Below are positions 17,690 through 21,410 of a stretch of DNA of 64,000 nucleotides, one piece after another. The stretch's first letter is position 1. Every line of letters begins with the position of its first letter. The notes below the pieces were generated by a model, which worked only from the letters and a program-made list of their open reading frames with translations, did not search any database and was not told the DNA's origin. The position numbers were made by a program, and so were the translations under genes. Source of the stretch: Saccostrea echinata (lineage: Eukaryota); contig NW_026889778.1 of assembly GCF_033153115.1 (NCBI RefSeq), positions 27,590,001-27,654,000 of the forward strand. Direction: 5' to 3'.

Positions 17690-18524
17690 AACGTGACAGT
17701 AGAAATAATTTTTTTTTTCGTTTTGTAACTCTTATATGACCATTTGTTGACCCTATAAAAAGGATTCTGATTTCCTCCTGAGGATTCCTGCTTAAAGCAA
17801 GCTGCAGATGATTGTAAGACAAACCAGACTGTGAAATTTTGGGCCATATTGTCTGAAACTATATTATGAACAAATATTGGTTTCAAAGTTTCAAAAATGT
17901 TTTTTTTTTTTTTTGGACTGAACTTGAAGAGATACAATATCACAAGTACTGGAGATATCAAATGTATATTTCAAATAAAGATCCTCAACTGCATGCTGAG
18001 GCAACTCAGTAAGTTTTGTAGCATTTTAGAACCTTCCAGAGCATCATGTCCAGTGTAGAAAATGTTCAAAACATATGACACTAAATACTGTTATATGAAA
18101 ATTTTTCATGAAAAGGAATAATTGCTCTGAAGAATTCCAAAGTGTCACAAAATCCCCTAAAACATTCATGTAGTTTTACACTAGGCACTTTCTTCATAGC
18201 ATTACACAAACAGAATAGGATCTTGAACGGACGGCAATCATCTTTCAAAACTCTCTAAGACATGCTGCAGGGAATGGCAAACAACTGGCTTTCGATGAGC
18301 GAACATTGATCGAACGTCAACCCTTTGACTCTTGATGCCTGTGCTGTAATAGGTACTTCAGGTATAACATACATACTAAAAGATCCTTCACCATAAACGG
18401 TTGAACTCTGAGTTATGTCTGCAATACATACAAGTATAACATGTATAAATAATATAAATTTGTTTTTGAGCACACATAAGTGAGTGTGTGTGTGTGTATG
18501 TGTGTGTGTGAGGGAGGGTCTGTT

Positions 18525-18573
<49 letters not shown>

Positions 18574-21410
18574 AATAAAACATGAGAAATAAATAACTAT
18601 ATACCTAGCCCTGTTGTCTCTAGATCAAAGTAAACCCTTGTGTAGTTTATTGCTGGCAATGGCACATGCTGCACTGGAGAAGGGGGAGGAGGAATTTCCT
18701 CAATGGACTCTGCTGCATACCCTGCATCATTAACCGCAGTTTGATAAGTAAGATTTTCCCTCAGCACCAGAGTGGTTACTTTTGTCTGTTTTTTTCTTTT
18801 TCCCCATTTTCAGTTCCAATCTTTTCCTTTTGAATGATTGTGTAGTTTAAAGATTCTCCTCTCTTTGCCTTTTTTCTGTTTTCTTTCAATGTATGTTGTT
18901 GTATGTTTCCCAGGAGACAGAAAAAGTTTCAAAAGTTTCTCATTAGCCTGGAAGATAAAAAAATTAAAAGACTATGTAGATAAATAAAAAACGGTTTTTA
19001 TTAATAAATAAATTACTTTATGTAAACCTATTACCTTCACTATGTATTCTTTCCCCAAGTTTTTTTGACACACTGCTGAAGCTGTTCTATCTGCTCTCTT
19101 AACTGGAGTAGAATTATTTTGTTCTAAAGATTTTTAGTTGATACCAGCCGATCAAAATTTTCGTTAATCTGGATGCTTTCAAGTTATGATAACTTTTCTG
19201 CATTCTCAGCATACTGGGTAAAAATATCCAATAAATTATTGAAAATAGCTTTCTTTTGGAGATATTTTGAAATGGAAGGTTTTTTGGCACTTATGTGTCA
19301 GAGTTTTGAAGAAACCTGCACGATGAAATATCACAATGCTGATGGTCACTTAACAAATGATTTGGAATAGCTAAAAAAAATTCCTTCATTCCATTTGGAT
19401 TGTTCTTATTTGTAGACAATGCACACGTGAAGCACTTTTTGATGTGAATGATGATTGTAGAACTAAGTAACTTCTGAATTTGTTTGTTTTTCTGTAAGGT
19501 ATAAAGTGTGTTTGTGAAGTTTTTTTACCGTATGGTTTCTGTCACTAGATTTTTCTATTGAACTGTCAACTTCCCTCTCGATTTTAGCAATATAGTTGTG
19601 GCATCATCGTCCATTATAATTTTCCTCACATCATAACACTTTCCTTTGATGTCATTCAATATATTAACAGCCATAGCAGGTTCCATAGCTTTTGAGCTAC
19701 CACCCCAGTTTTTTCTGCTGTCATGCTCTGGCACTCTATTACCTGTCTTAGTTGCCACATCACATTTTTACAGGTCTTGCTCATAGCACTGTAGCCCACT
19801 ACCTTCTTAGTGTTTATTCCAACCATATATTCATGGACTGGAATAAAAACATGTATTTAGATGTTTGTAAGCTTATAAAATTATTTCATGTCAATTATGA
19901 ATAATTCTATTTAGATAAATGAATTCCAAATTTATACAAACCATGAGTAGCCGCTATAGTCCTTGCCACTGCCACGTTTTTCCAACCAACATCAAAGGAC
20001 ATAGACAGGCTATCACTATAAAATAATGTGATGTTGATAAATTGTATGATTTTATTCTTAATAAAAATGAATAATTGAAAAGAAAATATACACAAATAAA
20101 AGTTATTAAATTAATTCAAATATTTAATAAGTAAAATTTAATATGCCTCGGCCATCTCTAAGAAAATGTTTATTTAATCTCTCAAGGCTCTGGATTTAAA
20201 AAAAAAATAAGTAGGTAGGGGAAATATTTTTCTTATTCCAAAAAACTCGTAAATATGAAGTTAAAATAGTTATTTAAGGGATAAGAAAACTTTGAAATGA
20301 AAAAAAATTGCTTCCTGGGGGTCCAAAAAGTTTTGAATCGGGCATTTTTAGTCAGTTCCTTAGGGTAGAGCAATGAAACAGTTTTTTTTTTTTTAAAGAT
20401 TGCCTTATTACTTGCATTGATGTTAAAGTTTATACCTTGATTTTTCTACTTCGTCTTCCAAGGCAACATCACATGATTCATTTGCAAGTTTTTCAAGCGA
20501 AGTCCCTGCTTTTCTTTCCAATTTCTTCACATTTCTTGGAGTATTGCATGGTATGTTCATCAAGGCAAATATTGTTGCAATGGTTGCTTCCCTTATCCCA
20601 GCAATGTAATAGTGCTGGAATATTAAAACACTAAAAATATAAATATTTTCATAAATTTTGCACACACTACATGCAATTCCATACACAGACATATTGAATT
20701 TATTATACAAAATGTATGCAAACCTACTCCTAATTTTGTATTGACATTAAAAGGTCCGTGGCTATTCCTTTGATGCTTTTGCTTTTTGCCACTTGCAACA
20801 CTATTTATGTGTCCACATCTACAGCACCTGATGTAGAACAAACTAGCTAACCCATATTTTCTATCTCTGTTAGAGTCAGCAAGTTGCAATGGTTGACTAC
20901 ATGCTGTACACACCTGCAGCATCATCTTAGCGAAATAATCCACTTCTATAATTCTTCTGCCTTGCAAAATGTCAATACAGCCTGTGACATCTTTATTTAT
21001 TCTGTAGAATCACAAGTAGATTCGTCCTCAAATACCTGTATAATATTTATTTTATGCGTAAGAAATACATCCCCCTATACACTGTTTGCGCAGATTTAAA
21101 ATCACGTATTTTATATAATTTAAAAAGAGAAGTAAAACACTTGTGTTTCTTTTTTCGTCATAGCTCTTAGCAGAATACCTTTATCGGAAGCTGATATATG
21201 TAAGTCATGAAATACACATAATGCACAATATATACCTGCAATTTATTGCTTGCATCCAATTCATTCATCGGAATTTTATTATTGTTGCAATCAGTAGATT
21301 CAGTGAAACTTTTCTTCTTAAATCGAGCATTCTTTAATCTTTTGATTGTTTTCCCTCCATATTGTTGTTTACAATAACGACCAATACTTTTTCTACCTTC
21401 TTTCATCAAA
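17690..21410 (-). pseudogene. Spliced, frameshifted Kolobok-type (Mutator-like domain) DDE transposase fused to a DEDDh 3'-5' exonuclease and a PML-C-like tail
   Basis: Ordered minus-strand motifs: GRRIIE..CxxC..GLAS....CxxC..FNVNTK (20724-20967); MNIP..KKLER (20436-20614); SFDVGWK(K)RGSG (about 19942-20013); CKM..EHDxRKNWGGSSKAMEP..IMDDDATT..DRNH (19520-19838); QINENF..RTASAVCQKNLG (19035-19175); VYFDLETTGLG (18605-18637); DITQ..FSMYVIP..ITAQASRVKGL (18315-18421); GHDALE (about 18035-18052). Exons have GT-AG boundaries. Confidence 0.85.

Follow-up and report, generated by a model that had tools for sequence, protein, structure and literature searches.

A decayed KolobokD-type transposon gene in Saccostrea echinata with a DEDDh exonuclease module related to the PML C terminus

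A window of 64 kb from the Saccostrea echinata genome (the whole stretch of DNA that was analyzed) contains the remains of a minus-strand gene that encoded, in this order, a Kolobok DDE transposase (PF20700), a DEDDh exonuclease, and a PML_C tail. The gene is best read as a decayed, intron-containing copy of a KolobokD element, in which one polypeptide joined the transposase to the exonuclease and its SAM-like PML_C tail and the exonuclease probably trimmed the 3' ends of DNA within the transposition complex of the element itself. The exonuclease module is related to the C terminus of PML and to the fish exonuclease Plex9. An earlier note, made from the letters of the window, had described one minus-strand exon chain combining these three parts, and every motif that it named was located on that strand.

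The gene comprises seven exons that run from position 21406 to approximately 17686 and are separated by six GT-AG introns with pyrimidine-rich acceptors, as expected from the note's description of it as intron containing; joined, the exons form a chain of 2631 nt. Exon 1 (predicted; 21236..21406) supplies the ATG and a basic N-terminal segment, ends at a GT donor at 21235, and aligns to Crassostrea virginica P0003. The transposase N-terminal CxxC..CxxC zinc finger (20896-20910 and 20809-20826) lies in exon 2 (20724..21035; PF20700 positions 1-76, E 1.6e-10), and the transposase continues in exon 3 (20436..20614; positions 83-139, E 4.8e-7). The first catalytic Asp (FDVGW, 19982-19996) is carried by exon 4 (19942..20015), which was placed by the splice chain, alignment, and this motif. 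Exon 5 (19035..19837) encodes a CCHC finger, the second Asp (MDDD, 19603-19614), a DxxH motif (DRNH, 19532-19543), an inserted zinc-finger region, and the catalytic Glu (QINENF, 19154-19171); it matches PF20700 positions 176-352 in three pieces and is 71% identical to P0001 over 266 residues. A basic linker (KRKR, 18820-18831), a proline-rich spacer, and the ExoI motif (18609-18632) follow in exon 6 (18605..18947), which has 62% identity to C. virginica P0169 over 55 residues. Exon 7 (17686..18418, end approximate) holds the rest of the exonuclease, with ExoII deleted, and the PML_C/SAM-like tail; its motifs are DITQ (18408-18419), FSMYVIP (18360-18380), ExoIII (GHDALE, 18034-18051), and FETLKPI..VSDNMAQ (17839-17895), and it is 44% identical to P0073 over 235 residues. 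The linker had been thought to run directly into the exonuclease. The two do belong to the same chain, but intron 6 (18419..18604, phase 1), which contains microsatellites and lies six codons past the ExoI Asp, splits ExoI from the remainder of the domain.

In a Pfam scan of 18 stop-free pieces of the window, five matched PF20700 in model order (positions 1-76, 83-139, 176-200, 198-256, and 281-352), four of them above the curated cut-off. One piece (17673-17858) matched PML_C (PF25244) with an E value of 1.1e-8 and 35.6 bits against a cut-off of 27.1, so that the resemblance of the tail to PML_C held; some circularity in this match is possible, because the same model gives 96 bits for oyster protein P0169 and may have been trained partly on such transposon tails. 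None of the pieces containing exonuclease sequence singly matched a Pfam nuclease family, because these pieces are short and broken. The ordered domain matches in the window are beyond chance.

Intact relatives show the same architecture in a single protein. A profile of the C-terminal module matched 936 clusters at an E value of 1e-30 or better, and the analysis covered the best 150 of these. PF20700, the DEDDh exonuclease, and PML_C occurred together in all seven long relatives scanned (P0008, P0014, P0185, P0188, P0196, P0197, and P0199, which include Solemya, Argopecten, Mytilus, and Saccostrea sequences) and also in P0007; the possibility, raised with the original description, that intact homologues would encode the two domains in separate genes is thereby answered. 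The window gene is collinear with intact fusion proteins of 830-920 amino acids (aa), and its nearest named relatives are from C. virginica. A frameshift-aware alignment through both domains to intact P0014 gave 289/754 identities (38%) with 17 frameshifts and 3 stops, and alignments to P0003 (58%) and P0001 (71%) contributed one further frameshift and one further stop, bringing the total to ~18 frameshifts and 3-4 stops. ExoII has been deleted near 18205, the usable last acceptor is 9 nt downstream of the splice site in the closest relative, the last Cys of the CCHC finger (retained in P0001-P0003) has become Ser, and the conserved Trp preceding the last Cys of the inserted finger is altered. 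This copy is dead, as had been concluded from its frameshifts. In the wider family, all three Exo motifs were kept in 35 of 40 transposase-fused rows as judged by pattern matching, and the nuclease has therefore probably been kept active.

Of the 154 relatives placed in a tree, 41 had a transposase core, 5 a transposase remnant, 27 the linker only, and 81 neither; many of these 81 are short open reading frame (ORF) calls, and many stand-alone rows start inside an intron. Several relatives are noteworthy in their own right. Newt protein P0037 (XP_078534085.1, Lissotriton helveticus; 917 aa) has two transposase-remnant segments followed by an intact exonuclease and PML_C, and from its sequence may represent an independent vertebrate capture. 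P0030, P0043, P0069, P0074, P0098, P0042, and P0055 carry an intact module after degenerate transposase remnants or long low-complexity N termini without Pfam matches. Three proteins of Anabrus simplex (P0017, P0028, and P0092), all on one 102-Mb contig, consist of 2-5 tandem exonuclease folds with altered ExoI residues and constitute Exuperantia-like pseudo-nuclease arrays. The transposase-free exonuclease-plus-tail proteins P0112 and P0152 (Babylonia and Littorina) form a supported clade with P0113, one of them being automatically named "protein PML-like"; the gastropod proteins are possibly domesticated or a host gene. Scans of viral, prokaryotic, and phage sequences gave no indication that the module came from a virus or bacterium: the first two each returned 2 loci with distant DnaQ-like matches only, and the 74 phage records matched were likewise distant and DnaQ-like, with ~30% identity for the best among the matches listed. 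A word-seeded search with the 62-aa tail, a method limited here by low sensitivity, gave no match.

The KolobokD lineage was named in 2022 in Mob DNA (PMC9587614; here and below, statements about published work refer to the available portions of the papers cited). It is defined as Kolobok elements encoding a DEDDh exonuclease, with molluscs, arthropods, and cnidarians as hosts, and its describers likened the nuclease to Exuperantia, TREX, and ERI1 and proposed that it performs 3' degradation of transposition intermediates (PMC9587614). The window gene has the Kolobok DDD/E and C/DxxH signature in FDVGW, MDDD, DRNH, and QINENF together with its PF20700 matches. It also has the zinc finger between DxxH and the catalytic Glu (KKCF..H..HQHC..SC, 19440-19318) and the KolobokD CCHC finger downstream of the first catalytic Asp (C-x-x-C..H, 19770-19725). 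ExoI and ExoIII of the exonuclease are present, and ExoII, deleted here, is intact in relatives. By eye, the transposase resembles Kolobok-1/7/9_CGi and Kolobok-1_ADi in Data S5 of PMC9587614. Judged by the text definition and this by-eye match, the window element classifies as a new dead member of KolobokD, and the suspicion that exonuclease-bearing Kolobok lineages were already catalogued proved right.

Comparisons of the exonuclease module in sequence and structure were made on intact relatives rather than on the broken window protein. Searched against the PDB, P0007 matched 9MRC, which is zebrafish Plex9.1, at an E value of 4e-30, compared with 0.003 for Exuperantia and ~0.3 or worse for TREX1. 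The module profile gave 161-188 bits for four Plex9-type chains, 44 for Exuperantia, and at most 34 for TREX proteins (E values of 1e-5 to 1e-7 for TREX1/TREX2). An AlphaFold model of the P0008 module (mean predicted local distance difference test score, 93) had 9mrc as its closest solved structure (Z 28.4, root mean square deviation [rmsd] of 1.1 Å over 181 residues); the EXO and SAM domains of Exuperantia (5l80) aligned at Z 24.3 with an rmsd of 6.5 over 219 positions spanning model residues 1-274, and TREX1 aligned at Z 21.0. No paper for PDB entries 9l85/9l8b was found in the literature. Two fish proteins, P0018 from Cottoperca and P0031 from Muraenolepis, were among the best 150 matches and are provisionally taken as Plex9 type from their likeness to the PDB chains. 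The median identity of their exonucleases to the 40 transposase-fused rows was 37.8%, compared with 36.4% among the fused rows themselves and 29.2% for 9 phage or bacterial outgroups. The C terminus of PML-1 has been described as an EXO-like plus a SAM-like domain (PMC13659232), the layout found in the transposon module. The window gene has a transposase in place of the N-terminal RBCC/TRIM region and is not a PML orthologue. Shared ancestry of the transposon module with the PML C terminus and Plex9 is well supported. A published link between KolobokD and PML was not found in a literature search whose scope left out Repbase Reports, subscription journals, and the supplements of PML papers, and the word "kolobok" occurs nowhere in the available portion of PMC13659232.

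The position of the intron after ExoI adds to this kinship. Counted from the ExoI Asp of the window gene, intron 6 interrupts the seventh following codon behind its first base (phase 1). Human PML retains D614 of ExoI (PMC13659232); its exon 8a comprises residues 571-620 and its exon 9 residues 621-882 (PMC11602975), and K616 lies in exon 8a (PMC3660695). With D614 read as the first ExoI Asp, intron 6 is at the same codon position as the human exon 8a/9 boundary, a comparison of codon position only, the phase being known for the window and for locus L007; the remainder of the module occupies a single exon in each gene. Locus L007 has the same intron in its DNA, also in phase 1, and spliced C. 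virginica P0169 and contig ORF P0073, members of the same cluster, diverge at the intron site, implying an intron in the oyster relative. Among the best 150 of the 936 matches, ExoI was in frame in 100, lacking in 31, and not placeable in 19. After removal of rows with a variant ExoI (3), a Met start past the site (3), exon-skipping gene models (2), or misregistration (1), 22 of the 31 ExoI-lacking rows were kept, and 18 of these had an acceptor-compatible dipeptide at the expected offset, compared with at most 3 at any other offset. The intron is not universal in the family, as 7 of 8 metagenome loci lack it and have an uninterrupted ExoI. An apparent confinement of intron-bearing rows to one clade was lost on trimming of the tree. 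In P0031 (Muraenolepis orangiensis), the residue after each of three ExoI-like repeats has a G-starting codon, which is weakly suggestive of compatibility with a phase-1 intron at this site in fish Plex9. The common intron supports shared descent of the gene segment, not a direction of movement.

We suggest that the element moved by TTAA cut-and-paste, as its family would predict, and that the nuclease, being part of one polypeptide with a basic linker, would have acted in the nucleus and in cis, trimming donor or target 3' ends, while the SAM-like tail may have helped to hold nucleic acid. A role in transposition itself is suggested because sister Kolobok lineages carry other DNA-processing enzymes, namely, a lambda-type exonuclease, a His-Me nuclease, or a RecQ helicase, in the place of the DEDDh domain (PMC9587614). 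Action in cis on DNA ends would fit the fusion of the nuclease to the transposase and the retention of the Exo motifs in most fused rows. The module model also aligned at Z 16.1 with the Cas1:Cas2-DEDDh integration complex (8fyc), an integrase-plus-DEDDh parallel. The DEDDh component of that complex has a trimming role. The same enzyme could instead have served counter-defense or competition, degrading excised or cytosolic DNA and so damping cGAS-STING-type sensing, or restricting retroelements as TREX1 and Plex9 do, an explanation that we regard as unlikely. It draws on the degradation of single- and double-stranded DNA and the suppression of L1 by Plex9.1, the nearest structure (PMC10123124), and on the 81 of 154 relatives that have the exonuclease plus tail without a transposase. 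Many of those stand-alone rows are, however, ORF-call fragments beginning in an intron, the nuclease follows the transposase and basic linker in intact elements, unrelated DNA enzymes take its place in the sister lineages, and no evidence was found for retroelement suppression or immune evasion by the element. Analogy with Plex9 and PXL makes RNA-binding or counter-defense roles of the module possible.

Some observations weigh against an end-trimming KolobokD element. Plex9 of fish and PML reside in the cytoplasm and do not need catalysis to restrict L1 (PMC10123124), in keeping with other functions of the fold, and the label KolobokD does not appear in the available supplements of PMC9587614. 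The ends of the element are also tentative. Kolobok elements are characterized by terminal inverted repeats with 5'-RR..YY-3' ends and by a TTAA target site duplication. A candidate 5' terminal inverted repeat (23691..23708, minus strand), starting GGT and preceded by TTAA, pairs with a candidate 3' repeat (17594..17611, plus strand) complementary to it at 15/18 positions, and this GGT..ACC pair (23708/17594) would delimit a 6.1-kb element; the candidate 3' flank agrees with TTAA at only 2/4 positions, so that TTAA is on the 5' side only, and the score of the pair, which was reached by 0 of 200 shuffles, was defined after the pair had been seen. No perfect TTAA-flanked inverted repeat pair was found in the window or in 8 short metagenome loci, and the window holds no second copy of the element. 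The lack of a firm target site duplication and of a second copy would also be expected if the locus were a host gene in decay or two elements that had come to lie side by side by chance, but that explanation is already largely refuted and very improbable, given the single collinear alignment to single intact proteins through both domains, the canonical introns, and a heavy decay unlike that of a maintained gene.

Whether the transposon or a host first possessed the module is a separate matter. The trees of the exonuclease comprised the transposon relatives, the fish proteins, and outgroups, without PML, Exuperantia, or TREX sequences. In a 74-row tree with 9 outgroups the backbone was unresolved and the bootstrap had not settled, and a position of Plex9 as the sister group of the remaining rows passed approximately unbiased (AU) tests without rejection, both with 74 rows (p-AU 0.224) and with 163 rows (p-AU 0.981). 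Two groupings were discarded: the nesting of Plex9 in a 163-row quick tree, after a constrained search gave a tree better by 119 log-likelihood units, and a FastTree grouping of Plex9 with P0162 and P0119, which was unstable and possibly an artifact of shared missing tail columns. The suggestion that such elements are relatives of the source of PML-like exonucleases thus stands as to kinship, by sequence, structure, and intron position, and not as to the transposon being the source. Indirect support for movement from transposon to host comes from distribution, since PML is reported only from jawed vertebrates and not from lamprey or hagfish and Plex9 from ray-finned and cartilaginous fishes (PMC10123124), whereas the fused element is found in several invertebrate phyla, and from the newt protein P0037 and from P0030 and P0043, which retain the module after transposase remnants. 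We tentatively propose, as a reading with somewhat less than an even chance, that the PML C terminus (exon 9 with the last part of exon 8a) and fish Plex9 are a domesticated KolobokD tail, which a TRIM gene acquired together with the intron early in the history of jawed vertebrates, the newt and other cases, possibly including Exuperantia, being independent captures. A quite improbable alternative is that the EXO-SAM module was a host gene, ancestral to Exuperantia and PML/Plex9, that Kolobok captured with its intron as a nucleic-acid-binding, self-regulating, or cargo function. The EXO/SAM layout shared with Exuperantia (Z 24.3) and the binding of UG-rich RNA without catalysis by PXL and Exuperantia (PMC13659232) would suit such an origin, as would the gastropod proteins without a transposase and the outcome of the AU tests. 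Retention of the catalytic motifs in most fused rows is contrary to a role confined to binding or cargo, PML and Plex9 are reported only from jawed vertebrates, and Exuperantia is far more distant in sequence than the Plex9-type chains. The evolutionary lead from KolobokD to PML is moderately likely.

The window element itself is an ordinary dead copy, and its interest lies in what it may tell about how the PML/Plex9 exonuclease arose, an origin that has been left at a "progenitor PML-like exonuclease" (PMC10123124) and for which an evolutionary analysis of EXO-SAM proteins has been called for (PMC13659232). A transposon widespread in invertebrates that has the complete module, a set of active-site motifs, and an exon boundary at the corresponding position is a concrete and testable candidate donor. 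If it was the donor, a DNA transposon supplied its host with a factor that restricts retrotransposons, and an anti-retrotransposon, tumor-suppressor module derives from that transposon's end-trimming nuclease.

The window is AT-rich and repeat-rich animal DNA. A broken long terminal repeat retrotransposon pol, Gypsy-like by domain order, lies at 29825-33590 on the plus strand, with reverse transcriptase (PF00078, E 9e-34) at 30473-31324 and an integrase match (PF00665) at 32682-33203. A near-perfect tandem duplication at 56894-59246 (period of ~968 bp, 99.9% over 1385 bp), a 251-bp piece of which recurs identically at 52160-52410, is either a recent duplication or an assembly artifact. Satellite-like arrays occupy 4888-5944 and 6047-6460 (periods of ~158 and ~146 bp), and a pair of 54-nt inverted repeats (24322-24375/25037-25090), 661 nt apart, is likely a small nonautonomous element. 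No Rfam match was found at 15-25 kb of the window.

Among known systems, KolobokD shares with the window element the DDE transposase, the CCHC finger after the first Asp, DxxH, the finger before the Glu, the DEDDh exonuclease, and a mollusc host. The window copy differs in being dead and in having lost ExoII, and the available description of KolobokD is without PML/Plex9, the SAM-like tail, or the intron (PMC9587614). KolobokE, KolobokP, and KolobokH belong to the same transposase superfamily and likewise have an accessory DNA enzyme, but this is a PD-D/ExK nuclease, a His-Me nuclease, or a RecQ helicase rather than a DEDDh exonuclease (PMC9587614). TREX1 and TREX2 have the DEDDh fold in common with the module (Z ~21) but match it much more weakly in sequence and lack a SAM-like tail. 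Exuperantia (5l80) shares the EXO and SAM-like layout across the whole module, but unlike the transposon protein it is a pseudo-nuclease, encoded by a host gene, with 19% identity. Plex9 and the PML-I C-terminal domain (CDE/PXL) belong to the same exonuclease subfamily as the transposon module, with the PML_C tail in common, although the two fish Plex9-type proteins retrieved, unlike the transposon module, are without that tail. Both are host genes without a transposase, PML having an RBCC N terminus and human PXL being catalytically dead (PMC10123124, PMC13659232). As in the window gene, PML CDE/PXL has an exon boundary at ExoI Asp+6, with the remaining EXO and the SAM domain in one last exon.

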